Positions 3,422-36,602 of a stretch of DNA of 64,000 nucleotides are shown here, one piece after another. The DNA is from Candidatus Eiseniibacteriota bacterium (lineage in GTDB: Bacteria; Eisenbacteria; RBG-16-71-46; JABDJR01): the NCBI GenBank assembly GCA_963762255.1, contig CAVXKA010000002.1:896001-960000 (forward strand), in the 5' to 3' direction. The notes below the pieces were generated by a model that saw only the letters and a program-made list of their open reading frames with translations, did not search any database and had not been told where the DNA came from. Positions within the stretch are counted from its first letter, which is position 1, and each line of letters starts with the position of its first letter. The position numbers were made by a program, and so were the translations under genes.

Positions 3422-5053
3422 CTAGGAGGGCGAGACCTTCACCCAACGCCCGTCGTTCTTGGGATTCAGCACGCCCTGATGCTTGATGTAGTTGCGCAGA
3501 ACCTCCAGGTCGGTGAATCCGGTGTACATCAGATCCTCGGATTGGAGCGCCTCGCGCAAGACGCCCATCCCGCTGTTCCCCTCGGCCAGGTAGTTGGTCA
3601 TGGCCACCTTGTAGATCTTCTCATCCTCTACAGGCTGACCGCCGATCGTGAACTCCACGATCCGGCTTCCGTCCGGCCGCGAAATGTCGTACGCGACCTT
3701 GCCGCCCGAGATGAAGATTCCGCCGGCGGTCCCGCGGAGCTTGTCCTCCATCATGCCGCGCAGCATCTGGCCTTTCAGATTCACGAGCACCATCTGATTG
3801 CCGAAGGGAGACACGCCAAGCAGGTGGCGCTCCGTGATATCGCCGGGAGAGATGTCCGCGCGCACGCCGCCCGTGTTCTGGATGGCGAAGTCGGCGTTGA
3901 GCTCGACCCGGAAGGCGTCCGCCATCACGAACCCCATGAGCGCGTTATTGGCCGACCCGCGCTGCAACAGCACCTCGGTCTGGCCGACCACGACATCGAG
4001 ACCCGCTTCGGCCTTGCTCACCTTCTCTTCGATGACCTTCTCCATGGCGGGGTCCGGCCAGATCTGCTCCTCGAACAGGGTGACCAGCGACCCGCGATCG
4101 GAGTGGGTCCGGTAGCCGATCATCTGCTTCGTGTTGCGATCGATGAGCATGGTGATGTGCCCGATGCTCGACCCGTTGCCGTAGGGTTCGAACACCACCG
4201 TGTGGGTGCGCGGATCCTCCCACGGCGTGTCGTAGCCCTGGTGGGTATGCCCGGTGAACATGGCGTCGATGCCCGGCGTCGTGTATGCGAGTTCCATCGC
4301 ACTCATGCCCCAGTGCGGAAGACCGCCTTCGGCATCGCGCTGCAGCATCTTGCGGTATTCGTTGCTCAACTCCGGCTTGTAGGGAAGCCCTGTGTGCAGG
4401 AGCGCAAGGACGACGTTTGCCCCCTGTGCGCGGACCCGCTCGACCTCGGGACCAAGCACCTCGTGGATGGGAGCGAACTCGATCCCTTCCAGGTTCTTTC
4501 CGAACGACATGTTGGCGGTGGACTCGGTGATGAATCCCACAACCGCGATCTTGATCCCGTCGACCTCGATGAAGAAGCTCGGGTCGATCCAGTCGACGGT
4601 CTTCTTGGTCTCGGCGTAGAGGATGTTCCCTCCCAGCACCGGGAAGTTGGCCATCTCGGCCAGACGCTTGGTGTTCTCCCACCCGAGGTCGAAATCGTGG
4701 TTGCCGAGCACGCAGGCCGTATACCCCATGTCGTTCATGAACTCGAAGATCGCGGTCCCCTTGGTGTTGGTGCCGAGCGGCGTCCCCTGGAAGATGTCGC
4801 CGTCGTCGAAGAGGAGCACGGCGCGCCCTTCCTTGGCCGCCTTGTCGCGAACGTCCTTGACGTAAGCGGCAATGCTCGCGCCCCCGCCCAGCGGCGGCGG
4901 GAAATTGGGATTCAGGAACGTAGCGTCGTCCTTGGAGATGTGCCCGTGGACATCGCTGGTGAAGAGGATGTCCACCTCGAGCAGATCGCTTGCGGGGATC
5001 GCCCCTCCCAGAAAGAGAAGACCGATGAGGCAAAGTGGGATGCATCGCTTCAT
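3422..5053 (-). CDS. Secreted 5'-nucleotidase / bifunctional metallophosphoesterase (UshA-like)
   Basis: Signal peptide; DVHG, DGDIFQG, LGNHDFD, GHTH, NTGGVRADI and PFGN motifs. Confidence 0.92.
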   Translation of the reverse strand: MKRCIPLCLIGLLFLGGAIPASDLLEVDILFTSDVHGHISKDDATFLNPNFPPPLGGGASIAAYVKDVRDKAAKEGRAVLLFDDGDIFQGTPLGTNTKGTAIFEFMNDMGYTACVLGNHDFDLGWENTKRLAEMANFPVLGGNILYAETKKTVDWIDPSFFIEVDGIKIAVVGFITESTANMSFGKNLEGIEFAPIHEVLGPEVERVRAQGANVVLALLHTGLPYKPELSNEYRKMLQRDAEGGLPHWGMSAMELAYTTPGIDAMFTGHTHQGYDTPWEDPRTHTVVFEPYGNGSSIGHITMLIDRNTKQMIGYRTHSDRGSLVTLFEEQIWPDPAMEKVIEEKVSKAEAGLDVVVGQTEVLLQRGSANNALMGFVMADAFRVELNADFAIQNTGGVRADISPGDITERHLLGVSPFGNQMVLVNLKGQMLRGMMEDKLRGTAGGIFISGGKVAYDISRPDGSRIVEFTIGGQPVEDEKIYKVAMTNYLAEGNSGMGVLREALQSEDLMYTGFTDLEVLRNYIKHQGVLNPKNDGRWVKVSPS

Positions 5054-6396
5054 TGCGGAATGACCTCATCCTCCGCCGGCATGGCGGGGGCGTAATTGAC
5101 GGGCGCGTAGTGCACGCTCTGGGAGAGCGCCACCGAGACCTCGTAGCTCACGCCATCGGTGGTCAGGGTGACGTTGTAGCCCTTGTCGTTCGTTAGGCGA
5201 AGGCCGAGAGGCTCGGCGCGGTCGGAGGCGTAGATGTCGGTGCGGTGGTTACGGAGTCGGATGAGCACCGATTCGCTCGGTAGCGTTCCCAGGCTCGACT
5301 CGTACGTGGTGATGGGAATGAGCCCCACCCGCGGGTTGACCGCGTTCACCCAATCGGCTGGGCTGCTGTCGTCGAGGCCGTGGTGATGGACTTTGAGCAC
5401 TTCGGTGTCGATGGCGCTTCCCTTGGCGGCGGCGATGGACGTGGTCACGGGGGCCTCGGCGTCTCCCCCCAGCATCAGATTCACGTCGCCATAGGTGAGG
5501 CGCAGGATCACGGAGTCGTTGTTGAGGACGTCTCCCTCGCTCACTCCGCCGAAGGTGCTGCCGTAGCCGGAATTGAGCACTTCCACACCGACCGACCCGT
5601 CCCATACGAGGGCGGACGTGCCACTGGAGGTGTCCCCGGCGCGAATGGTGTCGATGGGAACCGACTTGGCGCGCAGGGTGGGAAGGAGTTCGTCCCGATA
5701 GCTGCGGTAGGCGTAGGAGTTCATGTCGGACTTGAGCGGCGTGTCCAGAAAGCGCCCGATGTCGTAGGCCCCGAGAACCCCGTCGGAGAGCGTGTAGCTC
5801 TCGCCGACGAGCCCGCCGATATGGTCGCTGTGGACATGCGTGGCCATGGCCACGTCCAGACGGCTCACCCCCGCCGCTTGGAGGTAGGCGTCCACGTTCG
5901 CCCAGTCTCGGCGTTCACCGCCGTCGATGATGATGCGCTTGCCCGTGTTCGGCATGGTCAAGATATGCGAGTCCCCAAAACCGACGTCGATCATGGTCCA
6001 ACTCAGGAAGGGCTTCGGCGCCGGCCGAGTCCCCACCGTGAACGAGACCTCGTCGGCCGTCACGACACCACCGTTCTGGGCTCGATCCAGAACCTGCAGG
6101 TAGATCTTCTCTCCCTGGCTCACCGAGAGGAGCGGTACCCGGTGCTCGGTCGCGTACGCCAAGTCGGCGCGCGCCGCCGAGGCCGGATAGGCAACCCGGT
6201 TGTAGACGCCCGACGACGTGCCGTACCGAACCGATCCCAGGGTGGGCTCGTCGGTACTCCATCTCACCGTGTTCCCCTCCAGAGTGATCCCGTCCTGGAC
6301 GGGCACCTTGAGCGGACTGGGGCTGGAACACCCTATGAACCAAGCCAAAGCCGCGGGGAGCAACGCCCCCGTCAGCCGCTGCAATATCGATCTCAC
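5050..6396 (-). CDS. Lipoprotein with N-terminal FN3-like domain and ComEC/Rec2-type metallo-beta-lactamase-fold hydrolase
   Basis: Lipobox FIGC; IDVGFGDS, THVHSDHIG, NNDS, GGDAE and KVHHHG motifs. Confidence 0.85.
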   Translation of the reverse strand: MRSILQRLTGALLPAALAWFIGCSSPSPLKVPVQDGITLEGNTVRWSTDEPTLGSVRYGTSSGVYNRVAYPASAARADLAYATEHRVPLLSVSQGEKIYLQVLDRAQNGGVVTADEVSFTVGTRPAPKPFLSWTMIDVGFGDSHILTMPNTGKRIIIDGGERRDWANVDAYLQAAGVSRLDVAMATHVHSDHIGGLVGESYTLSDGVLGAYDIGRFLDTPLKSDMNSYAYRSYRDELLPTLRAKSVPIDTIRAGDTSSGTSALVWDGSVGVEVLNSGYGSTFGGVSEGDVLNNDSVILRLTYGDVNLMLGGDAEAPVTTSIAAAKGSAIDTEVLKVHHHGLDDSSPADWVNAVNPRVGLIPITTYESSLGTLPSESVLIRLRNHRTDIYASDRAEPLGLRLTNDKGYNVTLTTDGVSYEVSVALSQSVHYAPVNYAPAMPAEDEVIPQ

Positions 6397-6438: not shown

Positions 6439-7704
6439 CTAGAACCCGTAGTCCACACCCAGGGAAACCCGGAACAGCGTGTCGTCAACACGGTCCTGGC
6501 CAAGCCCCACGTAGGCGCCCTGCTCCGTGCGCGGGCGGATGGGGGTCTGGCGCGTCGACGCCTTCCCCACCTCGGCGGCCAGATCGATCCTGAACTGCTC
6601 GACCAGATAGCCGAACCCGAAGGTGAACGTCACCCGGTCGGCCTCGTCCATGGCGTACGACTGCCCGTAACGGAAGCCGATGCGCCCGGGGAGGTTGTTG
6701 TAGAAGACGTGCTCGAGACCGAAGCGGCCTTCCCACGTGTCCTGTAGCTTCTGGTCGGGGCTCAGATGGTCGGCGATCTCCGACCAGGGCGTGTACACCA
6801 CATCGGCGGCAAAGACGGTCTGGAACGCATTGCGAGGCCGGTAGGTGAGCCCTCCCTGGAAGCGCATGGGAAGCTCGAGATCGCCGCTCGACTGCTCGGG
6901 CGAGGTCACTGCGCCGTCGGTCCAGGTCGTGTAGTCATCGTTCAGCGACGGTTTCGTCTCGATCGCCGCACCGACCCGCAGCCGCTCGTCCACGTACACG
7001 TTGGCACCCACGGTCACCGAGAAGCCGTCCAGCTTGCGCTCGAGCTTCGCCTCGGTGGCCGAGCCGTAGTCGCTGGTGGCCAGCGAGACGAGGGCCTCGC
7101 GGTTGGTCAGGGTGCCGAAGTAGTAGTTCACCGCAACGCCCAGACCGGATCCGTCTCCGAATGGGAGCGCCACGCCCAGAGTGGCGGTGCGGAGCAACCC
7201 GTCGGTCTTGATGATCTTGTTGTTGCGCAGCGTGTCGCTGCTGTCGCTGGTGCGCAGCTCGTCGAAGTAGTCGTAACGGGGATCGTAGCGTGTGAACACG
7301 CCCCCCGACACGATCACGCCCCGCCCCCCCCAGTGATCGAGCACCACACCGCCCTGGAGCTCGCCGTAGCCGTTGTCGTTGACCGCGACCGCGGTCTCAT
7401 CGACGAACGAATCGAAGGTGTCGAACAGCGGCACGAGCCGGCTCTCGCTGGCCCGGGCCATTGCGCCCGTGAACTGCACGCGGTTGCCGCGCAGCAGGAC
7501 CAGGTTGGCCGGGTTGTCCACCAGGCTGAACACTCCGTCGCTCATCGCCGCACCCGCCCCTCCCATCGCACGCGAGCGCGCGGAGAGTCCGAGTTGCGGT
7601 GTCCCGTAGGCGCGATCCAGGAAGGAAAACGCGCTCGCCGGCCGGGCGGACACAAGGACCGCCGCCGCCAGCACTATCGTCAAGATGCCTCGCCTCATGC
7701 TCAT
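6439..7704 (-). CDS. Outer-membrane beta-barrel, FadL/OmpP1/PorV-like
   Basis: Signal peptide; SARSRAMGGAG...DNPANL motif; amphipathic strands; C-terminal VDYGF. Confidence 0.75.
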   Translation of the reverse strand: MSMRRGILTIVLAAAVLVSARPASAFSFLDRAYGTPQLGLSARSRAMGGAGAAMSDGVFSLVDNPANLVLLRGNRVQFTGAMARASESRLVPLFDTFDSFVDETAVAVNDNGYGELQGGVVLDHWGGRGVIVSGGVFTRYDPRYDYFDELRTSDSSDTLRNNKIIKTDGLLRTATLGVALPFGDGSGLGVAVNYYFGTLTNREALVSLATSDYGSATEAKLERKLDGFSVTVGANVYVDERLRVGAAIETKPSLNDDYTTWTDGAVTSPEQSSGDLELPMRFQGGLTYRPRNAFQTVFAADVVYTPWSEIADHLSPDQKLQDTWEGRFGLEHVFYNNLPGRIGFRYGQSYAMDEADRVTFTFGFGYLVEQFRIDLAAEVGKASTRQTPIRPRTEQGAYVGLGQDRVDDTLFRVSLGVDYGF

Positions 7705-10414: not shown

Positions 10415-11335
10415 CTACTTCCCGGAGGAGAGGACATAGCTCACACCGAACTGGTGGGTGGCCTCGAGGGTGCCCCCCCCAGTGGAGAAGCCGTAGTCCA
10501 CGGTGATGCCGTATTGGCTGATGCCGACACCGGCGGTGAAGATACTGGGCTCCGAGCGGATGCCGGCGCGCAGGCACAGGTAGTCGTTGACCTCGAACTC
10601 GGTCCCGCCCCGGAACTGGAGCGGATCGCCGAGCGTGCTCGAAATGTCGAGCGCGGTGGTCACGCCCTTGTAGGGCACGTAGGCCACCCCCGCTCCGACG
10701 CGGCGGATCAGGTCTTCCTTGTCGGTCTTGCCGATCGTGGGGTTGTTCATGTTGAGGGCGTAGAACCCCACGCGGGTGCGGTTGTAGATCGTGGCCTGCG
10801 CGGAGAAGTCGACGCCGAACGCCGTCGCGTTGCCGGGATCGATCCCGGTGCCCGGCTGGCCAGGATCCACATCCACGCTCATCCCGTAGTCCAGGTGGTA
10901 GATATTGATCCCCCACCCCGCCGCGAGCGTGCTCTGCATGTCCTTGAGAAGCTGGAACCCGTGCGCGAGGCTGATCGTGGTTTCCCCGGTCAGGTTCTCG
11001 CCTCGGTAGTCGACACCGAAGTGTCGAACACCGAGTCCCACGCCTCCGAACCGGCCCGCGCTCATCGTCCCCGAAGCCACGATCTGCTGCGAGAAGTCGT
11101 AGCCGAACGGCCTCACGAAGGAGGCCGCGACCGCAGGACCACCGGTCCAGGCGAGCGAGGCGGCGTTGTGGAACGGCGCGTACGCGTCCGCGGGGAGCGC
11201 GCTGAACGCACCGCCCAGCGCACGCGCCCGCGGGGACACCTCCAGATCCTCGAAGGCGGCAAAGGCCGGCGCCGCCGCAGCGAGGAGAGCCAGACCCACC
11301 AGGGCCGGCATCAGTCGTCTCCAGTTCGTCTTCAT
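10415..11335 (-). CDS. PorV/PorQ-family (T9SS-associated) outer-membrane protein
   Basis: AFEDLEVSPRARALGGA...HNAASL and C-terminal VDYGF...THQFGVSY typical of PorV/PorQ-like barrels. Confidence 0.72.
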   Translation of the reverse strand: MKTNWRRLMPALVGLALLAAAAPAFAAFEDLEVSPRARALGGAFSALPADAYAPFHNAASLAWTGGPAVAASFVRPFGYDFSQQIVASGTMSAGRFGGVGLGVRHFGVDYRGENLTGETTISLAHGFQLLKDMQSTLAAGWGINIYHLDYGMSVDVDPGQPGTGIDPGNATAFGVDFSAQATIYNRTRVGFYALNMNNPTIGKTDKEDLIRRVGAGVAYVPYKGVTTALDISSTLGDPLQFRGGTEFEVNDYLCLRAGIRSEPSIFTAGVGISQYGITVDYGFSTGGGTLEATHQFGVSYVLSSGK

Positions 11336-11348: not shown

Positions 11349-14300
11349 CTAGTCCAAACGCACGGAGACGACGATCGGGACCTGCTCCCGGCGGATCGTT
11401 CCGTCCAAGCTAGTAGTCATGAGATGGCAGATGTAGAGCCCGGCGCGGACGAACTCGAAAGTCTCGTCCCGGCCGTTCCACTTGAGCGTCCTCTTGGCGC
11501 CTGCCCCGTCGTAGAGCACCCTGACCACGCGCCCCTGCGTGTCGAAGACCCGGCACGTCGCCTTGGCCGAGCCCTCCGAGTTCATCTTGATCTCGATTGC
11601 CTGCTCGGCCCCGTTCGGCATCACGTAGCCGCGCAGCAGCGTGCGAGCGGCCACATCGAGGAGGCCCTCCTCGACCACAGCGGCCCCGGCAGTGAACTGG
11701 ATGATGGACCCGGCGACGATGGGGTTGCCGGCCAGATCCTGCACGTTGCTTACCTGAACGGTGTAACTGGTGCCGCCAACGAGGCCGGAGGCCAAGGTCA
11801 AGGTGACCTGACTCAGCGAGACCGCCGCCGAGCTGACGGCGATGGGCGAGGCGGGAGTGGCGGTCGGATAGACCGAGTAGTTCGCCGCCGTCGTGGCGCC
11901 GGCACCCAGAGCCTCCGAGAACACCACGGTGACGGCCCTCGAGTCAGCCGCGCCATTCGCCGAGGACAAGGTCGGCGGCGTCGTGTCGCCGGGTCCGCCC
12001 CCCTTCGAGAACTCGTCGGAGTGGCCCACGCCGATCTGGTAGGTCGTCGTCGAACCACTGCCGAATGCGCTGCCGAACCCGGCAGCGGTCACCACGTCGC
12101 CCGAAGCGAAATTGGCGGCAACGACCCCGGACGCGTTGCGCACCCGGAAGATGATGTCGCCCGCCGTATAGTTGTAGTTGCTGCTGCCCGAGGCCGACGG
12201 CGCCGCGGTCAGCGTCGCCGTGGTCCGGATGTAGGTCCCCTCCCAGGCCGCGGACTTCATCTGCGGCACCGTCAGGTCCTTCGGCGCCAGCCTCGGAACA
12301 CCGGACGCGATCAAGGTCGCCGTGTACCCGGTGATCTCGGTCGTCGTGAAGTAAAGCTCCACCACGCCCGTCACCTTGGCCACGTTGCCGCGGTCATCCA
12401 GCGCCGACTTGATGCTGCCACCGAACACGTTCAAACCTCGCCCGGAGCCGTCCTGGATGAACGCGCTCGTCGTCGTTCCGTTGCTCGAAGCGGTCACGTA
12501 CACCTGACCGATCATCGTCAGCGTCTGGGCGGCGAACCCGGATGGGTTGCCCTGGATCGTGGCGATGTTCGTTACGGTCTCGGCTACCGTGGAGAAGCTG
12601 GCAGTGCCGCCGGTCAGCGCGCCGCCGGTAAGGCTGGTCACCCCGCTCACCGTCAGCGTGTACGCCGTGCTCTTGGGCAGCGCGGCCGAGCGTCTTGATG
12701 ATCGCGGTCTGACCGTTCTCCTGCAGCGTCACCGAGGCGATGCTTAGCGACGGGGTGAAGCTGTAGTTGGCCGCCGTCGTCGCTTGGGCCGCGTTCACCT
12801 TCTCCGAGAACGCCACGCCCACGTAGTCGTTCCCGAACTGGAAGGCCGCCACCACCTGGATCGTCGTGCCGCCACCGCCGCCGCTCGTGAAGGCTACCGT
12901 CGAGTTGGCGGCGATCGGGTTCCCGGCCGCGTCCTGGACGTTGCTCACCTTCACCGTGTACGCGGTCGAGGCCGCAAGCGGCGACGCCAGCGTCAGGGTT
13001 ACCGTGGAGCCGGAGAGCGACGCCGAGCTGACCGCGATGGTCGATGCCGGAGTGGCGGTCGGATAGACCGAGTAGTTCGACGCCGTCGTGGCGCCGGCAC
13101 CCAGAGCCTCCGAGAACACCACGCTCACGCTGGTCGAACTCGCCGAGCCCGACGCGGAGACCAGGGTCGGCGGCGTCGGGATCGGGGCCGCTCCCCTTCG
13201 CAAAGTCGTCGCTGTGACCCACGCCGATCTGGTAGGTGAGCGATGACCCGCTCCCGTACGCGCTTCCGAACCCGGCCGCGGTCACGACGTCACCCGACGC
13301 GTAACTGGAGGCGTTGATCCCCGCCGCGTTACGCACCCGGAACGTGATGTCACCCGCAGGATAGTTGTAGTTGGTCGACCCAGAGGCCGACGGCGCCGCG
13401 CTCAGCGTCGCCGTGGTCTGGATGTACGTCCCTTCCCACGCCGCCGACTTCATCTGCGCCACCGTCAGCACCTTCGGCGCCAACTTCGGCAATCCCGACG
13501 CGATCAGGGTCGCCGTGTACCCCGTGATCTCGGTCGTCGTGAAGTAGATCTCCACCACGCCCGTCACCTTGGTCACGTTCCCACGGTTGTCCAGCGCCGA
13601 CTGCACGGCGCCGCCAAACACGTTCAGTCCACGACCGGAACCGTCCTGGATGAACGCGCTGCCCGTCGTCCCGTTGCTCGACGCGGTCACGTACACCTGA
13701 CCGATCATCGTCAGCGTCTGCGCGGCAAACCCGCTCGGGTTCGCCTGGATCGTCGCGATGTTCGTCACGGTCTCCGACACCGTCGAGAAGTTCGCGGTCC
13801 CGCCGCTCAGCGCGCCGCCGGTGAGGCTGGTCACCCCGCTCACCGTCAGCGTGTACGCCGTGCTCTTGGGCAGTGCGGCGGACGTCTTGATGATCGCGGT
13901 CTGTCCGTTCTCCTGCAGCGTCACCGAGCTGATGGTCAACGACGGGCTGAAACCGTAGTTGGCCGCCGTCGTCGCCTGGGCCGCGTTCACCTTCTCCGAG
14001 AACGCCACGCCCACGTAGTCGTTCCCGAACTGGAAGGCCGCCACCACGGAGAACCCCGTGCTGACGCTGCCCGTGGCGAAGGCCACCGTCGAGTTGGCCG
14101 CGATCGGGATCCCGGCCGCGCTCTGGACGTTGCTCACCTTCACCGTGTACGCGGTCGAGGCCGCAAGCGGCGACGCCAGCGTCAGGGTTACCGTGGAGCC
14201 GGAGAGGGCCGCTGAGCTGACCGCGATGGTCGAGGCGGGAGTGGCAGTCGGATAGACCGAGTAGTTCGACGCCGTCGTGGCGCCGGTTCCCAGAGCGTCC

Positions 14301-16441: not shown

Positions 16442-16563
16442 GGGACGAAACCTTTCTCCTCCACGGAGTCGGTTTGAGTTGGGCCGGACCATGCCGGCCG
16501 CGGAGAAGGACCGCGCGATCGACCGGGAGCCAAGAACCCCTCGTCGAAAGCTAGCCCGGCAGT

Positions 16564-22343: not shown

Positions 22344-22362
22344 GACGTCCTGTCCTGCTTTC

Positions 22363-26507: not shown

Positions 26508-26556
26508 CGGAGCGCAGCCGGCCGAAATCTTGGCCGGGCCTTCCCTGGATCCAGGG

Positions 26557-27024: not shown

Positions 27025-27025
27025 G

Positions 27026-27298: not shown

Positions 27299-27336
27299 CG
27301 CGAGGTCCCTCCGTCCGGCGACGCGAACACGTTCAC

Positions 27337-28232: not shown

Positions 28233-28242
28233 CGTCCCTTTC

Positions 28243-29679
28243 CTACACGATCCGGAAGCGGTCCACGAGGACGCACCGCCGCCAGCGGGTGAAACTGCGA
28301 GCGCGGGTCATTCCCTCGCCGGTGGGGCTCGCGATCGAGAACGAGGTGAACCCCTCGCCGCCCGCGCCCAGCCCGGCCAGCGACGAGCCGTTCTTGACGA
28401 AGATCGAGCAGTCCATGACCCGGGCCATGCGGCTCAGGGCATCCACGTTCCGCGAGTGCATGACCGCGGTGTGGCGGAAGCCGTGCTCGGCGGCCTTGGC
28501 CAGATCGATAGCCGCGTTCACGTCGCGCACGCGCACCAGCGGCATGACCGGCATCATCTGCTCGGTCCAGACCAGCGGATGATCCTCGGGGACTTCCACC
28601 AGGATCATGCGCACGTCGTCGCCCACCGTGATCCCCATCTCCTTGAGAATGACGGCGGGGATCTTTCCGATGAAGTTCTTGTTGATCACGCCGTGCTGGC
28701 GCGGCCCGCGCATCTCGGTGAAGATCGTCTTCTCGAGCTTCCCGAGCTGCCAGGCGGTGAGTTCCACCGCGCCGGCGGCGATCATCGCCTTCTTCAGGCG
28801 ATCCGCCACCGCGTCCACGCAGATCACTTCCTTCTCCGTGGTGCAGACGATCTGGTTGTCGAAGGATCCGCCTTTGACGATGTCGCGACCGGCGCGCTCG
28901 AAGTCGGCGGTCTCGTCCACCACCACCGGCGGATTACCAGGGCCCGCGCAGATGGCGCGCTTGCCGCTGCCCATCGCCTCTTTCACCACGCCGGGACCGC
29001 CGGTGACGACCAGCAGGTTGACCAGCTTGTGGCGCATGAGTTCCTGCGCGCTCTCGATCGTGGGATTGGCCACACACGTGACGAGGTTGGGCGGCCCGCC
29101 CGCGGCGGTGATCGCCTGATTGATGAGCTGCACCGTCTTGGCCGAGCAGTTCTTGGCGTTGGGATGGGCGTTGAAGACGGCCGCGTTCCCCGCCGAGAGC
29201 ATCCCGATCGCGTTGTTGATGATGGTGGCGGTGGGGTTGGTGGTCGGTGTGATCGCGCCCACCACGCCGAAGGGCGCAAGCTCCAGAAGCGTGAGCCCGT
29301 GGTCGCCGGTGGTGACCAGTGGTTCGAGATCCTCGGGCCCCGGGCTCTTGTTGATGACGAGAAGGTTCTTCTCGACCTTGTCCTCGTAGCGGCCGAGCCC
29401 GGTCTCCTCGCGCGCCATCCAGGAGAGCAGCTCCGCGTTGTGACGCAGCACGACCCGCATCTGGGCGATGATGTCGTAGCGCAGGGCGAGGCTCGACTCA
29501 CAAAGCAAGCGCTGCGCTTCCTTGGCCGCGGTGACCGCGCTCTCCACGCCGGCGAAGATGCCGTCGCTCCCGGGCGCCGGGGGCGGCGGGAGCGGCTTCC
29601 CCTCGGGGGTGTGGCCCGACTTCATCGAGCCCAACACATCCTGCACCGTGCGGCTGATCTCCTCGCGGGAGATGCTCAT
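28243..29679 (-). CDS. CoA-acylating aldehyde dehydrogenase (EutE/PduP family) with N-terminal encapsulation peptide
   Basis: EETGLGR, PTTNPT, VTGGPGVV, AGPGNPP, CTTEK, GGEGFTSFSIASPTGEG; N-terminal REEISRTVQDVL helix plus Pro linker. Confidence 0.94.
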   Translation of the reverse strand: MSISREEISRTVQDVLGSMKSGHTPEGKPLPPPPAPGSDGIFAGVESAVTAAKEAQRLLCESSLALRYDIIAQMRVVLRHNAELLSWMAREETGLGRYEDKVEKNLLVINKSPGPEDLEPLVTTGDHGLTLLELAPFGVVGAITPTTNPTATIINNAIGMLSAGNAAVFNAHPNAKNCSAKTVQLINQAITAAGGPPNLVTCVANPTIESAQELMRHKLVNLLVVTGGPGVVKEAMGSGKRAICAGPGNPPVVVDETADFERAGRDIVKGGSFDNQIVCTTEKEVICVDAVADRLKKAMIAAGAVELTAWQLGKLEKTIFTEMRGPRQHGVINKNFIGKIPAVILKEMGITVGDDVRMILVEVPEDHPLVWTEQMMPVMPLVRVRDVNAAIDLAKAAEHGFRHTAVMHSRNVDALSRMARVMDCSIFVKNGSSLAGLGAGGEGFTSFSIASPTGEGMTRARSFTRWRRCVLVDRFRIV

Positions 29680-29694
29680 CCGCCTCTCCTTCCC

Positions 29695-29991
29695 TTACTC
29701 ATTCGACTTGTCGTAGACACGGCGATCGTCCAGCTCCCAGGTGTCCACGATCGCCATCACGACGGCGTCGCAGGGACGGTCCTTGGTGGACTGGGTCTGG
29801 CGCGCACTGGAGCCGGTGGCGAAGAGGACGACTTCGCCGACCCCCGCCCCCACTGCATCGCTCGCCACCACGAAGCTGCCGGTCTCCTTGGCTTCCGCGG
29901 TGAGCTGGCGCAGGAGCAGGAACTTGAGTCCCTCCATGCTCTCTTCCTTGCGCGAGGCCACCACGGTGCCGACCACCCGGGCCAGTAGCAT
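29695..29991 (-). CDS. Microcompartment vertex protein (BMC-P, EutN/CcmL family)
   Basis: [13 protein letters not shown]...DAVGAGVGE...GSSAR...DAVVMAIVD. Confidence 0.93.
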
Positions 29992-30048
29992 GAGCTTTCC
30001 TCCGCGGACGGGGCCGGGACGCGTGCCCCGACCCCGTTCGGAAGTGCG

Positions 30049-30360
30049 TTACTTGCCGCCCATCTCGGCGCGGGCTTCCTTGCTCCGGCCGAGAGGCAGC
30101 GCGATGTCCACGTTGACGTGCGGCCGCGGAATGGTGTGCGTGCTCACCACCTCGCCCACCTTCTCCGCCCCACGCTTGCCGGCATCCACCGCCGCTTTCA
30201 CCGCGGCCACGTCGCCGCGGACGATGACCGTCACATAGCCCCCGCCGATCTTCTCGTAGGCGACCAACTCCACCTTCGCCGCCTTCACCATGGCGTCGGC
30301 GGCTTCCACCGTCGCGGCGAATCCGCGGGTTTCGATCATGCCCAGCGCTTCTGCCATCAC
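30049..30360 (-). CDS. Hexameric shell protein (BMC-H, EutM/PduA-like)
   Basis: ALGMIETRG...ADAMVKAA...RGDVAAV...IPRPH. Confidence 0.96.
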
Positions 30361-30451
30361 GTCCTCCGTTGCTTCGGGTTATGCGGCCGGGGAGGCGCCT
30401 TCGTCGGGCTTCACGGCCCGCGCGTGCCCCGTCCGGTCTTCTGAAATCGTT

Positions 30452-31081
30452 CTAGGACTCCCGCCCGGTCAACTCCGCGATCGCGGCCTCGGCGGCGCGG
30501 TACCCGACGTCGATGTCGCGCTCCTCACCGCCGAGATAGATGCGGCCGAACGAACCGAACGCGCGCACATCGAGAATGTTGATGTGCGCCGCCTTCTCCG
30601 CCTCGTTGGCGGCGAGCGCCGCGTAGGCCGCGGGCTCCAGCTCCATGACGTATAGGCTATGCCCCGGCACCAGCATGTTGCCGTGGCGCATCCGGTTGAT
30701 GAGCTGGGCCTGGAGCGGATCCACGAGGCGGATCACCTGGCTCGAGAGGACGCGCGGCTTGCGCCGGTCGCTCTCGGTGAGACCGCACGCATCGAGGATC
30801 GCCTGCCCCGCCTGGCGCACTTCGCCCTGCGATTCGGAGTGAACCTCGAGAAGGCCGTACAGGCGCTCGACGATCTGCATGCCGGGAAAAACGTTGGTGC
30901 TCTTCACCGCGATGTCGGTGATGCGGTTGATCTCGATGCCGGGTGAGATCTCCACGTACAGGCACGCTTGGCCGGGCAGCGGCAGGAACCCTCCCGCCAC
31001 CGTGCCCAGGAACGCCGCGTGCTGCGGCTGCAAGCTGTCGAGAAACACGTAGGAGCGCAGGTCGATCTGCGTTTTCGCCAT
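30452..31081 (-). CDS. Permuted double-stacking shell protein (BMC-Tdp, CsoS1D/CcmP-like)
   Basis: [41 protein letters not shown]. Confidence 0.9.
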
Positions 31082-32115
31082 CAGTAAGGACCTTTCGTTT
31101 GCGGGGAGTCGACGGCCTCGCCGCGCGACTCCTTCACGATGCGCACCCCCGCCGAGGCGCCGATGCGGGTCGCCCCCGCCTCGATCATCCCCAGCGCATC
31201 GGCATAGCTCCGAATGCCGCCCGCGGCCTTCACCCCCATTTCGGGGCCCACCGTGGCGCGCATGATGGCCACGTCGCGGATGGTCGCCCCCCCTGAGGCG
31301 AATCCGGTGGAGGTCTTCACGAAATCCGCGCGCGCGCGCTTGGCGAGAAGGCAGGCCACGACCTTTTCCTCGTCGGTGAGGAGGGCGGCTTCGATGATCA
31401 CCTTCACGATCACGTTCGATTCGTGGCAGGCGGCGGTGACCTCGGCGATGTCTTCCTCCACCAGATCGTAGTTCCCGCTCTTGAGCGCGCCCACGTTGAT
31501 GACCATGTCCACCTCGCGCGCGCCCTCGCGGATCGCCTTGCGCGACTCGAAAGCCTTGGTGGCGGGAGTGGTGGCGCCGAGCGGGAAGCCGACCACGGTG
31601 CAGACCTTGGCGTCGCTCCCTCGCAAGAGCTGCGCGCAGAGTCGCACGAAGCTTGGGTTGACGCACACCGAGGCGAAGTGGTTGCGCGCCGCTTCCTCGC
31701 AGAGCTTCTGAATCTCCGCTTCGGTGGCGTCGGGCTTGAGCATGGTGTGGTCGATGTAGCTGGCGATGTCGTGGGCCACCGCGCCGCTTCCGCCGCCGGA
31801 GCCGATACGCGACGCGCCGGCGGCCACAAAGCTTCGCACCGTCTCCGGGCTGCGCTGCGCGGGGTTCGTGCTGCGCGCGCGGTCTTCGGAGTCTGCGGAG
31901 CTGGCGTGACGGATGGCGGGTCGCTCGTAGCACGGCTCGTAGGAGCGGCGGTAGGCCTCGGTGACCGCGGGGCCCTTGGGTGCCGACCCGGCGGGCGAGG
32001 ACGGCTTGCTTGCTGCAGGCGCTTCCGCCGTTGGCGGCGCCGCGGCGGCCGGCCCCTGCAGCCGGGCCAGCACCTCGCGGGTGATCCGCTCGATGAGGGC
32101 ATCGCGCTCGTTCAT
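31081..32115 (-). CDS. deoC: Deoxyribose-phosphate aldolase with ~120-aa N-terminal extension
   Basis: [35 protein letters not shown]; N-terminal [15 protein letters not shown]. Confidence 0.95.
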
Positions 32116-32672
32116 CGCGCTCCCGCTCCCGCCCCGTCCAGGGCGTCGATCTTGGCCACCCGCTTCAAGTGGCGCTCTTCCGTGCAGGCGGTCGCAAGAA
32201 AGGTCTTCACGATCGCGCGGGCGAGCACGACGCCGATCAATCCCGCTCCCAGCGTGACCACGTTGGCGTTGTTGTGCTCGCGCGCGTTGGCGGCGGTGGA
32301 GAGGTCGTAGCAGAGCGCGGCCCGCGCGCCCGGAATCTTGTTGGCGGCCATGCAGGATCCGATGCCGGCGCCGTCGATCATGATCCCGAACTCGGCGCGC
32401 CCATCGACGACCGCGCGCGCGACCGCCGCCGCGAAGTCGGGATAGTCCACCGCGTCGGTGGAGTGCGTGCCGAGGTCGACCGGTTCCCACCCGATCGTCG
32501 GGAGGAATCGCTTGAGATCTTCCTTGAGCGGAAAGCCGCCGTGGTCGGCGCCGATCGCCACTCGGCGCGCCGCGACCGCACCGGGATTCGCGAGCGATGC
32601 GTCGACGACGCGCTCCACCACCGTGCGCACGAGATTCTCAAGCTCTCGATCGTGCAAGCCGCCGTCCTCCAT
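32112..32672 (-). CDS. rpiB: Ribose-5-phosphate isomerase B with N-terminal encapsulation peptide
   Basis: [33 protein letters not shown]; N-terminal [13 protein letters not shown]. Confidence 0.92.
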
Positions 32673-32751
32673 TCGCTTCGAGCCGCCTTGCCTCGAAGTC
32701 GGGGCGCGATGATACTACGGGCCCCCGGAGGCGTCCACACACGGAGGAAGC

Positions 32752-33324
32752 ATGGCCGACAAGACGCGCTGCGCATGGGCGGGCACCGATCCCCTCTACG
32801 TGGCTTACCACGATCACGAGTGGGGCGTGCCCGAGCACGACGATCGCGCGCTCTTCGAGAAGCTCCTGCTGGACGGGTTCCAGGCCGGCCTGGCCTGGAT
32901 CACGATCCTGCGCAAGCGCGAGAACTTTCGGCGGGCCTTCGACGGGTTCGACCCGGAGAAGATCGCCCGCTACCGCGCGGCGAAGATCGAATCGCTGCTC
33001 GCGGATCCCGGTATCGTGCGCAACCGGCAGAAGGTAGCGGCCTCGGTGGGCAATGCGCGGGCCTACATCGAGCTGAGGAAGGAAGCCGGGAGTTTCGACC
33101 GGTATCTGTGGAGCTTCGTGGGGGGGAAGCCGATAATGAACGCGTACCGGACGATGGCGGAATTGCCGGCGCGGTCGGCGGAATCCGAAGCGATGAGCCG
33201 CGATCTCGTGCGTCGGGGGTTTCGATTCGTGGGCCCCACCATCTGCTACGCGTTCATGCAGGCGGTGGGGATGACGCACGATCACCTCGTCGACTGCTTC
33301 CGGTACGGAAAGCTCAAGCCATGA
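32752..33324 (+). CDS. tag: DNA-3-methyladenine glycosylase I
   Basis: RCAW, YHDHEWG, FQAGLAW, IVRNRQK, FVGPTICYAFMQA, DHLVDC. Confidence 0.95.
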   Translation: MADKTRCAWAGTDPLYVAYHDHEWGVPEHDDRALFEKLLLDGFQAGLAWITILRKRENFRRAFDGFDPEKIARYRAAKIESLLADPGIVRNRQKVAASVGNARAYIELRKEAGSFDRYLWSFVGGKPIMNAYRTMAELPARSAESEAMSRDLVRRGFRFVGPTICYAFMQAVGMTHDHLVDCFRYGKLKP

Positions 33325-33725
33325 CCTCGTTGCGCCGCAACAAGAACTGGATCCTCGTCGCCGTCGCGGTGGCGGTGCCCGTGCTCGTGATCGTGGGGCT
33401 GCGGGTGGCCGCCCGCGTCGAGGAGTGGCCCGTCTCCCTCGGCGCCAACACCGTAGAGCAGGTCAAGGGACAACCGCTGACGCTCTACTCCTGCGACAAC
33501 ATCCCCAAGCTCTCGGGCACGCCGTGTCATGAACAGGGCAGCGCCGACTTCATGATGGTGGTGCTCCACGACAAGCCTGCGGGCGCGGCGTCGGTGCGCG
33601 TCCCCGACCCCGGCGCCGGCATCCCCGCGCGCACGCTCGAGCTTCGTTTCATCGGCGGAACGGTCTGGGTCAAGGTCGAGGCGAGCGATCTGCAAGGATG
33701 GATCGAGCGCGGCTACACGCGCTGA
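33321..33725 (+). CDS. Hypothetical membrane-anchored protein (SH3-like C-terminal WVKV...GWI)
   Basis: ATGA overlap with the tag stop; N-terminal TM helix. Confidence 0.6.
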   Translation: MTSLRRNKNWILVAVAVAVPVLVIVGLRVAARVEEWPVSLGANTVEQVKGQPLTLYSCDNIPKLSGTPCHEQGSADFMMVVLHDKPAGAASVRVPDPGAGIPARTLELRFIGGTVWVKVEASDLQGWIERGYTR

Positions 33726-33781
33726 ATCGCGCGGCAACAACCGCCGCGTGACATCCGCCCGCTTCGGTTCCGTCGCCCCCG

Positions 33782-34450
33782 CTACTCGGCCTTCACGAAC
33801 CTCACCATCCCGGTCTTCAGGTCTTCGCTGGCGGGGCTCGGGCCGAACCAGATGGCGAAGAGGGCCCGCGCGAACGCAGGATCGGCGATGGGCGCGCAGG
33901 GGCGACCCGGCATCATCACGTAGAGCCCCATGCCCGGCATCCAGGTGATCTCGATCGTCTGACCGTCCTTGACGCCGGCGTCGGTGAAGAAGCCGAGGAA
34001 GGCCGCCTTCGCTTTCTCCAGGTCCGGCGTCATCGCATCCGCGGGAAGAGTCTTTGCGAACCCCTCCTCATAGGTCTCGCGGATCTTTCCGCCGTCCACG
34101 TCCCGCAGGAAGTGCATCTCGACCCGCTTCGCGAAGTTTCCGTTGATCAACGCGGCAAAGGGATCGGCACCGAGCGGCGCGTTCTCGTCCGCATAGAGCA
34201 CACCCTCGTACACCTTGAACATGAGCTTCTTGCGCAGGCCGGAACCGAGCGCCTTCAAGGTGACCGTCTCCCCCGCCGCCTTGATCGCGATCTTCTCGGG
34301 GAACTTCTTATCCGTGCCCTTTCCCTTGAAGGTCTCCGTGCCCGCGGGGGACACGTTGAGGATCTGCGGGATCGCGCCTTGGGCGCGCACGAGGACCGCA
34401 GCGAAGATCGTGAGGACCAGGGCGAGGAGAGCCATGCGGGCGAGCTTCAT
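33782..34450 (-). CDS. Chalcone-isomerase-like family secreted protein
   Basis: GSGLRKKLMFKVY, FARALFAIWFG..P. Confidence 0.8.
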   Translation of the reverse strand: MKLARMALLALVLTIFAAVLVRAQGAIPQILNVSPAGTETFKGKGTDKKFPEKIAIKAAGETVTLKALGSGLRKKLMFKVYEGVLYADENAPLGADPFAALINGNFAKRVEMHFLRDVDGGKIRETYEEGFAKTLPADAMTPDLEKAKAAFLGFFTDAGVKDGQTIEITWMPGMGLYVMMPGRPCAPIADPAFARALFAIWFGPSPASEDLKTGMVRFVKAE

Positions 34451-34466
34451 CGTTCACCTCCGGAGG

Positions 34467-36602
34467 TCAGGGCCGGATATCGAGCCTGATACGGGCGTCG
34501 ACCGCCACGCATCCCTTGCCAACTGATAGCACCTTTACAGGGTTCAGGTCCATCTCCGCGATCTCGGGATGATTCCCCACCAGAACGGACACACGCAGGA
34601 TCGCTTCCTCCAGGGCCGGGACATCGGCCGGAGGCGCGCCGCGATAGCCGTTGAGGAGTGCATACCCCCGAACCCCCCGAACCATTTCGTCGGCGTCGCG
34701 GTCGGTGAGCGGGTGGATGCGGAAGGTCACGTCCTTCATCACTTCGACCTGCACCCCGCCGAGGCCGAACGCCACGAGCGGGCCGAACTTGGGATCCTGG
34801 GTCACGCCGACCAGAACCTCGACCCCTTCCTTCACCAGGGGCTGCACGGTGAAGCCGTGCGCCGCGCCCTCCAGGCCGCGGGTGCGCAGCGCGGCGCAGA
34901 TCTCGTTCACCGCGCTCTCGACCTCCGCTTCCGTGCGCAGGTCGAGCCGCACACCGCCCACGTCGCTCTTGTGCGAGATGGAATCGGAGTGGAGCTTCAC
35001 GACCACGGGGAAACCGAGGGAGCGCGCGGCGGCCGCCGCCTCCTTGGGGGTCGCGGCGAAGAGCACGGGCGGGGTGCGGATGCCGTACGCGGCCAGGACG
35101 CGGTCGACTTCGTCGGCGTTGAGCCAGCCGCCTTCATCGCCCATGCGCTCGCGCGCGGCCGCAAACACCGCGGCGGCGTCCGCCGCGCGCACGTCGTCAA
35201 AGGCGATCTCGCGACCGGGGGCCTTCGCCATCCACTGGCCGTGGCGCACCGCGCGCCCGAGCACGCGCACCGCGCTCTCGGGAAACGCATACGAGGGGAT
35301 GTTTCCCTCCTTGAGCGAGCGCAGTCCTTCCGGCACGCCGTGCTTGCCGAGGAAGCAGGTGAGCACCGGCTTCTCGGTGCCTTCGGAGCCGTTCACGATC
35401 CCCCGCGCCACCTCGCGGGGCTCCGTCACGATCGGCGGCACGAAGAGCGCGATCAAGGCGTCGATCTTCGGGTCCGCGAGCAGCGCCCGCGTGGCACGCT
35501 CGTAGTTCTGCGCGGTGGCCGAAGCGATCATGTCCACCGGGTTGCGCACGCTCGCTTCCGGGGGAAGGAACTCGTGCAGGCGCGCCGTGGTGCTCTCGCT
35601 CAGGTCGGACACCTCCAGCCCGTGCGCCTCGCAGGCATCGGTCGCGAGGATCCCGGGACCGCCGGCGTTGGTCAGGATGGCCACGCGGCTCCCCTTCGGG
35701 ATCGGCTGATACGCGAGGAACGCGGCCATGTCGAAGAGTTCTTCCACGGTGTCGACGCGGATGATGCCGGTCTGCGCGAAGAGCGCGTCCACCGCCACGT
35801 CGGCGCCTGCCAGGGCGCCGGTGTGGCTCGTGGCCGCGGTCATGCCTCGGCGCGTGCGCCCGCTCTTTACGGCGACGATCGGCTTGCGCCGCGTGATCTC
35901 ACGAGCGAGCCGCGTGAACTTGCGGGGGTTACCGAACGATTCCAGGTACAAGAGCATGACCTTGGTGCGCGGGTCGGCGTCCCACCACTGCACGAGGTCG
36001 TTGCTGGAAACGTCGGCCTTGTTCCCGATGGAGACGAAGTCGCTGACCCCGATGTTGAAGCTGCGCGTGTAGTCGAGGATGGCCACCCCGAGCGCGCCGC
36101 TCTGGCTGGCGATGGCCACGTTGCCTTCCGGCGGATAGGTCGGGGCAAAGGTCGCGTCGAGGCGCACGTCGGGTGCGGTGCTGAGCACACCGAGGCAATT
36201 CGGCCCCACCAGGCGCATGCCGTGCGCGCGAACGATCTCCTTCAAGCGCGCTTCGCGGGCCGCGCCTTCTTCGTTGACTTCCTTGAACCCGGCCGAGATC
36301 ACGACCACCCCGCGCACACCCTTCGCGGCGCAGGCTTCGACCATGGCGACGACGACCTTGGCCGGCACCACGACCACCGCGAGGTCGACCGGGCCCGGGA
36401 TATCGGCGATGCTCGCGTAAGCCTTCACCGACTGCACGAAGTCGGACTTGAGGTTGACCGGGTACACCGGCCCCTGGAAACCGTTCAAGAGCAGGTTGCG
36501 GAAGATCTCGCCGCCGATCGACCCGCGCTCGGTGGAAGCGCCGATCACCGCCACCGATCGCGGGCGCAAGAGACCCGAGAGATCCACGGCGCTCCCGCTC
36601 AC
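34467..36602 (-). CDS. Acetate/acyl-CoA ligase (ADP-forming), alpha-beta fusion
   Basis: PRSVAVIGAS, GPNCLG, SQSG, SHTGALAG (phospho-His), NAGG, HKSDVGGV, DLNPV; GTG start overlaps the usp stop; no GNAT domain. Confidence 0.9.
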   Translation of the reverse strand: MSGSAVDLSGLLRPRSVAVIGASTERGSIGGEIFRNLLLNGFQGPVYPVNLKSDFVQSVKAYASIADIPGPVDLAVVVVPAKVVVAMVEACAAKGVRGVVVISAGFKEVNEEGAAREARLKEIVRAHGMRLVGPNCLGVLSTAPDVRLDATFAPTYPPEGNVAIASQSGALGVAILDYTRSFNIGVSDFVSIGNKADVSSNDLVQWWDADPRTKVMLLYLESFGNPRKFTRLAREITRRKPIVAVKSGRTRRGMTAATSHTGALAGADVAVDALFAQTGIIRVDTVEELFDMAAFLAYQPIPKGSRVAILTNAGGPGILATDACEAHGLEVSDLSESTTARLHEFLPPEASVRNPVDMIASATAQNYERATRALLADPKIDALIALFVPPIVTEPREVARGIVNGSEGTEKPVLTCFLGKHGVPEGLRSLKEGNIPSYAFPESAVRVLGRAVRHGQWMAKAPGREIAFDDVRAADAAAVFAAARERMGDEGGWLNADEVDRVLAAYGIRTPPVLFAATPKEAAAAARSLGFPVVVKLHSDSISHKSDVGGVRLDLRTEAEVESAVNEICAALRTRGLEGAAHGFTVQPLVKEGVEVLVGVTQDPKFGPLVAFGLGGVQVEVMKDVTFRIHPLTDRDADEMVRGVRGYALLNGYRGAPPADVPALEEAILRVSVLVGNHPEIAEMDLNPVKVLSVGKGCVAVDARIRLDIRP

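Follow-up and report, generated by a model that had tools for sequence, protein, structure and literature searches.

A 64,000-nucleotide stretch of the genome of an uncultured, soil-type Candidatus Eiseniibacteriota bacterium (contig CAVXKA010000002.1, positions 896,001 to 960,000; hereafter the window) carries, between positions 3422 and 36602, genes for surface and outer-membrane proteins, a nucleoside operon, a bacterial microcompartment (BMC) of the sugar-phosphate-utilization (SPU) type and an ADP-forming acetyl-CoA synthetase (ACD). A sequence-only reading of this region had proposed a complete DNA-eating "super-locus" leading from surface capture through nucleosides and a microcompartment to ATP, and our analyses partly support that interpretation. 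The actual system is a five-gene cassette that encodes a surface LTD/OB protein, a PorV-like barrel, an outer-membrane barrel with helix-hairpin-helix modules (HhH-barrel), a FadL-like barrel and a 5'-nucleotidase. The wider "super-locus" is a lineage-specific juxtaposition confined to one order. We regard it as a neighborhood of at least five separately transcribed modules whose most likely joint role, with what we judge a little better than an even chance, is feeding on extracellular nucleic acid.

Four independent DNA- or nucleotide-related signals support this reading within a tight cassette: an HHH_3 domain, a ComEC-type metallo-beta-lactamase (MBL) domain, the 5'-nucleotidase, and LTD modules with OB folds. 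The cassette brings together a DNA binder of the ComEA type, a nuclease domain of the ComEC type, a nucleotidase, and the LTD/OB modules that it has in common with secreted nucleases; we think that nucleic-acid or nucleotide acquisition is its most likely job. The arrangement exceeds chance, since its order recurs in relatives and the core cassette recurs in all 80 loci kept for comparison. Persistent adjacency to purine nucleoside phosphorylase (PNP), Add, Hpt, Udk and an SPU compartment also fits the proposal, found in the main texts of two SPU papers, that these compartments process DNA-derived deoxyribose-5-phosphate (PMC8217296; PMC11585597).

The outer-membrane cassette

Genes in the window (G+C ~67%) were picked by third-position G+C, and 41 open reading frames (ORFs) were scanned for families with Pfam and NCBIfam. 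The gene content given in the sequence-only reading was borne out nearly item by item. All families that it named were found on the minus strand, in the near co-orientation that it described, with two plus-strand genes interrupting; a third BMC-P gene and a PHP-type lipoprotein gene had been missed (Table 1).

The HhH-barrel protein matches HHH_3 (E 2.1e-13; 50.6 bits, cut-off 27), the ComEA-type DNA-binding domain. Its AlphaFold2 model (mean pLDDT 81.3, pTM 0.77, from a 32-row alignment) predicts a signal peptide, two HhH modules (residues ~40–210) and a beta-barrel of ~24–26 strands (~220–891). A Foldseek search of the PDB with this model returned generic large barrels alone (SlpA, FimD/PapC ushers, TonB-dependent receptors and MtrB; TM ≤0.45), with TonB-dependent transporters resembled as a generic fold alone at TM ≤0.4. 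The family thus lacks a solved close relative.

Relatives of the HhH-barrel number 187 in the protein database and 233 in a wider scan of species-representative genomes, one genome per species. Cassette counts refer to the best 80 of these 233 relatives, among which only loci with enough flanking DNA were evaluable. The LTD/Big_5 surface protein lies upstream in 68/68 evaluable loci, a PorV-like gene is present in 78/78 and a FadL-like gene in 71/71, and a 5'-nucleotidase lies downstream of the HhH-barrel in all 59 loci with at least 4.6 kb of downstream DNA. In every evaluable locus the cassette genes share one strand and one order. Accessory genes are more sporadic: the MBL gene occurs in 19 of the 80 loci, a 638-residue cargo protein of the type IX secretion system (T9SS; the protein is called T9SS638 below) in six, the PHP lipoprotein (PHP672) in four and PNP in two. 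The 80 loci come from records titled Eisenbacteria, Krumholzibacteriota/-ia, Latescibacterota, Gemmatimonas/Gemmatimonadales, "Fibrobacteraceae" and unnamed bacteria, the taxon titles of metagenome-assembled records being unreliable. Genes flanking the Krumholzibacteriota-type loci (Mrp/ApbC, EIIA-type, AAA+ unfoldase-like, RsgA and heptosyltransferase) are housekeeping genes and were excluded.

The other barrels of the cassette are more loosely classified. The PorV/PorQ-family barrel reaches 54.6 bits against NF033709 (cut-off 90), and the FadL-like barrel matches Toluene_X (E 9.3e-07), with BamG (80.9 bits) and PorV_fam both below cut-off. The PorV-like and HhH-barrel genes are 9 nt apart, and a complex prediction for their products scored 0.44 (runs 0.44, 0.44 and 0.20; best of three controls 0.00), with contacts agreeing to at least 95% between runs and partner pLDDT of at least 80. 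The mark applied in this prediction is passed by 58 of 80 solved complexes and 2 of 110 mismatched pairs, and at scores ≤0.60 by 7 of the 80 solved complexes and both mismatches; the prediction lends weak support to a complex between the two proteins. The 5'-nucleotidase, last gene in the conserved cassette, has an N-terminal signal sequence and matches Pfam 5_nucleotid_C (E 3.6e-34) and Metallophos, with the NCBIfam UshA-like model below cut-off.

The window's cassette also contains the accessory MBL lipoprotein (448 residues), whose best relatives in the PDB are the beta-lactamase-like domains of ComEC (9ic4_A, E 1.8e-18; 30bt_A, E 4.7e-18). It retains an intact HxHxDH motif (HVHSDH at residue 187) and a FIGC lipobox, and it matches only positions 562–656 of the 663-position ComEC model (61.7 bits, cut-off 190). 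These similarities make it a candidate periplasmic nuclease of a stand-alone ComEC type.

The competence machine has ComEA-type HhH modules and an MBL domain of the ComEC type among its parts, and LTD/OB surface proteins could tether matrix DNA. The cassette might accordingly serve natural transformation, or the anchoring of extracellular DNA in a biofilm matrix, instead of nutrition. We consider this improbable: the 5'-nucleotidase found in every evaluable locus destroys nucleotides and preserves no DNA, the MBL gene is confined to a minority of loci, and a Pfam scan of the locus detected no ComEC channel domain, secretin or pilus genes.

The surface proteins provide the remaining DNA-related signal. 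The large surface gene encodes an N-terminal LTD, ~4 repeats of ~396 residues with Big_5, and a putative C-terminal T9SS-like sorting domain whose Por_Secre_tail match reaches only E 0.033. T9SS638 scores 35.2 bits against TIGR04183 (cut-off 23), and a profile search found the T9SS translocon protein SprA over cut-off in the same genome. The T9SS638 model (pLDDT 85.7) was aligned to ~48,000 structure chains and is predicted to comprise an LTD-like module, a beta-sandwich, two OB folds and a C-terminal sorting domain. Residues 1–220 best match a Bacteroides DUF4876 protein (Z 9.0). Residues 324–427 match OB folds, including the AspRS anticodon-binding domain 5gro_B (Z 8.7, rmsd 2.1 over 88 residues), RPA and HIN, and residues 428–535 match those of the MCM N-domain 1ltl_A (Z 9.1), RPA bound to ssDNA, and Teb1. 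Residues 540–638 match the T9SS sorting domain of PorU (6za2_B, Z 8.3). These Z values barely exceed the tool's quoted background; the matches are mutually consistent and agree with Atlas look-alikes that carry LTD, Por_Secre_tail and PF01336. Foldseek with the entire model found generic multi-Ig chains only (TM ~0.14).

Residues 22–220 of T9SS638 are 43–47% identical to the tandem N-terminal modules of endonuclease/exonuclease/phosphatase (EEP) nucleases. A Pfam scan found no EEP catalytic domain (PF03372) in T9SS638, whose partial relatives P0221, P0218 and P0239 do have it. Against the ExeM/NucH model NF033681, T9SS638 matches profile positions 20–121 only (19.2 bits, cut-off 300). The earlier suggestion that the surface proteins are DNA-related holds for an LTD module in common with EEP nucleases and for two OB folds. 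The neighboring PHP672 has an LAAGC lipobox and a CehA/McbA metallohydrolase domain (46.2 bits, below cut-off), its look-alike clusters in the Atlas carry the name "Phosphoesterase PHP", and it is confined to the window's family. A PDB sequence search with PHP672 and T9SS638 returned no match.

Barrels of the PorV family and of the BamG-like type are parts of T9SS and BAM biology, the Foldseek search gave no specific relative for the HhH-barrel, and OB matches of Z 8–9 lie near the tool background. A T9SS-linked surface-display or secretion device, with cargo unrelated to nucleic acid and with purely structural HhH and OB folds, would account for these features. The degree of identity between the LTD module and those of EEP nucleases, the strength of the HHH_3 match, the invariant 5'-nucleotidase and the ComEC-type character of the MBL, where present, make such a device very improbable in our estimation.

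The nucleoside operon, the microcompartment and their gene order

Upstream of T9SS638 lies a nucleoside operon in the order Hpt, amidohydrolase, Add, Udk and PNP, with gaps of -4 to 19 nt. Beyond it, the microcompartment operon reads RpiB, DeoC, CcmP-like BMC-T, BMC-H, BMC-P, aldehyde dehydrogenase (AldDH), PduT-like BMC-T, BMC-P, BMC-P and a DinB/MST-like gene. It combines BMC-H, BMC-T and a BMC-P triplet with DeoC, RpiB and an acylating AldDH, as is characteristic of SPU loci. As to subtype, the operon lacks PduS as in SPU6, yet its BMC-Tdp is CcmP-like as in SPU2/SPU3. RpiB, DeoC and AldDH each open with a short amphipathic N-terminal helix in their translations, followed in DeoC by an Ala/Pro/Ser-rich linker of ~80 residues, and these helices look like encapsulation peptides. 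The ACD scores 552 bits against AcCoA-syn-alpha, just below the cut-off of 567.

The region is not one operon and comprises at least five co-oriented transcription units, which we separate because of the two plus-strand genes, a hairpin and two promoter-like sites. The first unit contains Usp, ACD and the Chalcone_3-like gene, the second runs from RpiB through the DinB-like gene, the third from Hpt through PNP, and the fourth consists of T9SS638 alone. The fifth extends from the PHP lipoprotein through the 5'-nucleotidase and perhaps into an alpha-2-macroglobulin gene at 2–3418. Intergenic gaps from Hpt to the 5'-nucleotidase range from -4 to 97 nt, except for 260 nt before T9SS638. A terminator-like hairpin with a 13-pair stem (18656–18627) directly follows T9SS638. 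A sigma-70 scan placed promoter-like sites at 20733–20705, giving T9SS638 its own, and at 32737–32709; such scans are weak here (0 and 3 sites against ~1.5 expected), and the sigma-70 consensus may not be this phylum's.

Contigs from RNA libraries align to positions 17001–37000 at 90–95% and come from relatives; four runs contained 5–9% of the search words, and no run contained as much as half. T9SS638, the BMC (as one 6458-nt contig, 25599–31980), the ACD and part of the nucleoside operon are covered by these contigs. They show neither transcripts, strands nor levels and the libraries may contain DNA, so we draw no conclusion about co-expression from them, nor any conclusion from the parts that they leave uncovered.

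Comparison of gene order, made by placing the window's proteins on ~60 kb around the barrel gene of relatives, shows that the three blocks (cassette, nucleoside operon and microcompartment) form one contiguous, collinear series in the window and in five other genomes. Four of these (G003, G004, G006 and G007) represent two further genera of the window's family and, with the window's own genome, make up the five long-contig genomes of that family. The whole order from 5'-nucleotidase to Usp is kept in G003, G006 and G007, and in G004 it is kept up to Tag, the limit of the DNA compared. In the sister family, the blocks are adjacent in one of two genomes: G008 keeps the order from the 5'-nucleotidase to a contig break within the BMC operon, and a second contig carries RpiB to AldDH. 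The other genome, G009, has RpiB through BMC-P, an LTD-module gene, Hpt, amidohydrolase, Udk and PNP on one contig, with the BMC and the nucleoside operon 1.9 kb apart. That LTD module (contig C30, ~32609–33271 of the joined stretch L157/L160) is of the T9SS638 type and is encoded on the opposite strand, after the last BMC-P and before Hpt. Of 12 flanking genes of the window, among them alpha-2-macroglobulin, Tag, ACD, Usp and MutY, none was found on the G008 and G009 contigs, which argues that the blocks persist together beyond general synteny. The ACD adjoins the BMC only within the window's family (G003, G006 and G007) and not on sister-family contigs.

Across the 206 genomes of the phylum compared, 17 encode a full-length HhH-barrel (with the window's own genome left out of the family counts, 6/7 in the window's family, 2/2 in the sister family, and 1/15, 2/3 and 5/89 in three other families). 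BMC shell genes are present in 142 (69%, including the unpublished genome G081). The compartment is thus a phylum-wide trait, and the cassette is patchy. All 17 HhH-barrel carriers have a BMC, but this co-occurrence was rejected as evidence: 69% of the phylum has a BMC and the carriers represent only five families. The HhH-barrel of the distant family with 5/89 carriers is 55–58% identical to the window's, while that of the sister family is 52–53% identical. These identities, together with the patchy distribution, hint at transfer of the cassette within the phylum.

The sequence-only reading had presented the three blocks as physically joined and had proposed synteny and phylogenetic profiling as a check. 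In the genomes compared here, the linkage stands in the long-contig genomes of the window's family and in G008 and is lacking in the other families examined. Its view of the region as one system resembling a polysaccharide utilization locus (PUL) survives as adjacency conserved in one order, and not as a system-wide unit.

Table 1. Genes of the region, in window coordinates, with the matches on which their names are based
Feature	Position	Strand	Basis
UshA-like 5'-nucleotidase	3422–5053	-	Pfam, NCBIfam
ComEC-type MBL lipoprotein	5050–6396	-	Lactamase_B, ComEC_Rec2
FadL/BamG/PorV-like barrel	6439–7704	-	Toluene_X
HhH-barrel protein, 891 aa	7730–10405	-	HHH_3
PorV/PorQ-family barrel	10415–11335	-	NF033709, below cut-off
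Large LTD/Big_5 surface gene	11349–16492	-	Pfam LTD, Big_5
PHP-type lipoprotein, 672 aa (PHP672)	16564–18582	-	CehA/McbA domain, below cut-off
T9SS cargo protein, 638 aa (T9SS638)	18680–20596	-	TIGR04183, over cut-off
PNP	20857–21720	-	NCBIfam, 326.9 bits, over cut-off
Udk	21717–22343	-	NCBIfam, 305.6 bits, over cut-off
Add	22363–23499	-	TIGR01430, 298.8 bits, over cut-off
MtaD/DadD-like amidohydrolase	23500 to ~24855	-	PRK07228-like, 444 bits, below 522 cut-off
Hpt	~24852–25415	-	HGPRTase, 211.8 bits, over cut-off
Alpha/beta hydrolase	25587–26507	+	
DinB/MST-like gene	26557–27093	-	
BMC-P (third copy)	27090–27340	-	PF03319
BMC-P	27337–27627	-	PF03319
PduT-like BMC-T	27606–28232	-	tandem PF00936
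Acylating AldDH	28243–29679	-	PRK15398, 644 bits (cut-off 403)
BMC-P	29695–29991	-	PF03319
BMC-H	30049–30360	-	PF00936
CcmP-like BMC-T	30452–31069	-	336 bits (cut-off 340)
DeoC with N-terminal extension	31081 to ~32100	-	TIGR00126, 278 bits (cut-off 117)
RpiB	32112–32672	-	TIGR01120, 147 bits (cut-off 139)
Tag (DNA glycosylase)	32752–33324	+	
Chalcone_3-like gene	33782–34450	-	
ACD, GTG start at 36602	34467–36602	-	ATP-grasp_5, Succ_CoA_lig, CoA_binding
Usp	36599–37063	-	

Several neighboring features deserve mention. The alpha-2-macroglobulin gene starts 3 nt after the 5'-nucleotidase and is syntenic in G004, G006 and G007 and not in G003 or G008. Two DNA glycosylase genes, Tag and MutY (37217–38351, plus strand), flank the BMC and ACD units, and Tag keeps its place beside RpiB in G003, G004, G006 and G007; a repair link to the acetaldehyde-producing organelle is conceivable. 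A 152-residue ORF at 33282–33740 had no family hit and no match in relatives and was not counted as a gene. Farther along, a 436-residue protein (39542–40852, plus strand) carries a C-terminal HNH endonuclease domain, and a 201-residue ORF (52039–52644), short for DprA, matches the DprA (DNA_processg_A) Rossmann domain (E 2e-38).

A proposed route and the points against it

From the gene families, the gene orders and the modeled barrel and OB folds, we infer the substrates, topology, step order and co-regulation of a possible route. T9SS-exported LTD/OB-fold proteins would hold DNA at the cell surface. The HhH-barrel, flanked by the PorV-like and FadL-like barrels and with its two ComEA-type modules at a presumably periplasmic N-terminal end, would admit DNA or oligonucleotides. 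These might then be cut by the ComEC-type MBL lipoprotein, and perhaps by the PHP lipoprotein too, before the UshA-like 5'-nucleotidase strips phosphate. Nucleosides would enter the cell through a transporter encoded elsewhere; a Bmp-type nucleoside-binding protein of an ABC system is encoded ~66 kb downstream of the locus. Add and the amidohydrolase would deaminate them and PNP would free pentose-1-phosphate, with Hpt and Udk recycling bases and pyrimidine nucleosides. A mutase whose gene is still to be assigned would produce (deoxy)ribose-5-phosphate, from which DeoC and AldDH within the SPU compartment could form glyceraldehyde-3-phosphate and acetyl-CoA. Finally, the ACD would yield ATP; it is left as the acetate/ATP route because no ackA match was found in the genome.

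We searched the rest of the genome, which is 93.6% complete (so that a missing match is not proof of absence), for the steps that the sequence-only reading had listed as gaps in the window. Its phosphopentomutase gap was confirmed and widened: canonical deoB (TIGR01696) is over cut-off in none of the eight family genomes (75–100% complete), the window's included, while both sister-family genomes have deoB away from the locus. The step from PNP to DeoC therefore has no assigned enzyme in the family, a lack that points to a phosphopentomutase still to be assigned. The genome has three PGM/PMM-family genes, one of which encodes a 591-residue protein whose best PDB relative is a "Phosphopentomutase" chain (E 3.9e-21, over about half its length), marginally above GlmM-type relatives; this similarity makes it a candidate phosphopentomutase and no more. 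Of the other two gaps, that for an inner-membrane nucleoside transporter persists for nupC (PF07662), which has no match in the genome; the Bmp-type protein is the one nucleoside-uptake component noted there. That for a pyrimidine phosphorylase is closed outside the window, where a thymidine/pyrimidine-nucleoside phosphorylase gene lies with cdd ~62–67 kb upstream, in and beside a heme-biosynthesis cluster.

Many observations weigh against a role of the neighborhood in feeding on nucleic acid, beginning with the missing deoB and nupC. No ExeM/NucH nuclease (NF033681) is over cut-off in the genome, and the core cassette lacks a nuclease in 61 of the 80 loci. Hpt and Udk are salvage (anabolic) enzymes, not catabolic ones, and the genome contains purM, so the salvage-type nucleoside block could simply be salvage. 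The modules are divided among separate transcription units, family scans recognized no regulator in the region, and the co-occurrence of HhH-barrel and BMC says little against so high a BMC background. In G009, the cassette lies on two other contigs and is not in the 24 kb past PNP or the 10.8 kb past RpiB. Six genomes of two other families (G154, G159, G111, G108, G132 and G082) have an intact cassette with no nucleoside, BMC or ACD gene in the 14–60 kb seen around it. DeoC is located elsewhere in four of the five of these that were searched, alone in three and beside RpiB in G082. Ten BMC loci from seven other families are of SPU type only in G068, and none has nucleoside genes or an ACD within 20 kb on either side.

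The window's large surface gene is itself broken by four frame changes (near 15520, 15065, 13170 and 12690), with a frame path of 0>2>0>1>2 inside a ~1190-bp tandem repeat (period 1188–1195 nt). Its orthologs are intact single ORFs (1729 residues in G004 and 1737 in G003), and the window's gene matches the 1729-residue ORF colinearly across its four frames; the breaks reflect either an assembly error in the repeat or a pseudogene. With deoB lacking, a salvage-type nucleoside block, nuclease-free cassettes and a broken surface gene, the description of the locus as "complete" was an overstatement.

Taken alone, the cassette could just as naturally serve to scavenge phosphorus as to supply carbon, which adds to the points against the nutritional reading of the whole. 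A fragment or ORF of a PHO4/PiT-type phosphate transporter and a PhoU_div (DUF47) gene lie at 50180–51889, ~14 kb from the locus, and would be relevant if the cassette serves phosphorus supply.

The modules might thus be neighbors by descent only, with a cassette that scavenges phosphate or nucleosides, an operon for salvage, a compartment that uses other sugar phosphates, and an adjacency without function. This is a possibility that we take seriously while considering it rather unlikely. The modules occur apart in other families and, for the cassette, in G009; the stretch separating Hpt from the BMC differs among genomes in length (~1.5 to 9 kb) and in gene content; and BMCs are a phylum-wide trait. 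The absence of deoB, the Hpt/Udk salvage enzymes, purM and the separate transcription units likewise favor this account. It explains less readily why two families with ~50% protein identity and 0/12 flanking genes kept still share the order and orientation of the blocks, or why G009, with its cassette elsewhere, has an LTD-module gene between the BMC and Hpt. Moreover, PNP makes exactly the class of pentose phosphate that DeoC and RpiB use.

Relation to known systems

SPU microcompartment loci were reportedly described by Axen in 2014. The window's locus resembles them in having DERA (PF01791) beside RPI (PF02502), AldDH, BMC-H, BMC-Ts, a BMC-Tdp and a BMC-P triplet, and it lacks phosphotransacylase (PTAC).

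According to the SPU authors' main texts, SPU loci without PTAC carry BMC-Tdp (Sutter, 2021, PMC8217296; Dwyer, 2024, PMC11585597). The window's locus differs from SPU loci in adjoining a nucleoside operon, T9SS proteins and an outer-membrane cassette. The main text of PMC11585597 uses neither "nucleoside" nor "nuclease", and that of PMC8217296 does not use "nucleoside", the supplementary locus tables lying outside this count.

DNA-degradation loci of Izemoplasmatales co-locate secreted nucleic-acid-binding/LTD proteins, nucleotidases and nucleoside genes for growth on extracellular DNA (Wasmund, 2021; PMC8289736), a combination similar to that in the window. Those organisms are wall-less or monoderm. 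As presented in the main text, their loci have no outer-membrane barrels and include genuine extracellular nucleases along with transporters and an ABC system for phosphate; neither "microcompartment" nor "outer membrane" occurs in that text. In Hodarchaeales, the main text of another study reconstructs a genome-wide route through 5'-nucleotidase, phosphorylase and mutase (PMC12747264).

The window shares HHH_3 modules and an MBL domain nearest the ComEC nuclease domain with the ComEA/ComEC competence system. Unlike in that system, its HhH modules are fused to an outer-membrane barrel, its MBL is a free lipoprotein without the ComEC channel, its locus encodes no secretin or pilus, and a 5'-nucleotidase follows. 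Sus-like PULs similarly encode surface binders, an outer-membrane channel and periplasmic hydrolases together with downstream catabolism. No SusC (TonB-dependent) or SusD is found among the 41 ORFs scanned, however; the channel is of another barrel type, and the binders are T9SS cargo and not lipoproteins. ExeM/NucH nucleases share the N-terminal LTD-type module of T9SS638 and the OB-like region next to it, whereas the EEP catalytic domain is theirs alone.

A literature search found no description of the HhH-barrel cassette or of its link to a compartment; the supplementary locus tables of BMC catalogs, which may show such neighbors, were outside its scope. The sequence-only reading knew of no report of the region as one system, and this agrees with our search as far as the cassette and its compartment link are concerned, while the hypothesis connecting SPU compartments to DNA is already in print. 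The outer-membrane cassette is thus the new part, with SPU loci and DNA-degradation loci already known.

We tentatively suggest, as a possibility more doubtful than probable, that FCB-group phyla possess an undescribed, TonB-independent importer of DNA or oligonucleotides in their outer membrane, made up of the HhH-barrel, the PorV-like and FadL-like proteins and the LTD/OB protein displayed by the T9SS. Fused to the pore, the ComEA-type part would act as a ratchet that draws the polymer into the periplasm for dismantling by the 5'-nucleotidase and, in some lineages, by a ComEC-type nuclease. In one Eisenbacteria order the importer would have come to lie beside a nucleoside operon and an SPU compartment. 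If true, this would amount to a "Sus-like system for nucleic acid".

Soils and sediments contain much carbon, nitrogen and phosphorus in the form of extracellular DNA, whose uptake by diderm bacteria is poorly known beyond a few models. SPU compartments are among the most widespread bacterial organelles, and their assigned function rests on the identity of two enzymes alone. The present analysis offers two handles on these questions: a strictly conserved five-gene cassette for assay, with at least 233 species-level carriers, and a lineage in which the cassette, a nucleoside operon and an SPU compartment are neighbors. If the proposed reading is true, this placement of the cassette would provide the first evidence from genomic context that SPU organelles burn the pentose of nucleic acids.

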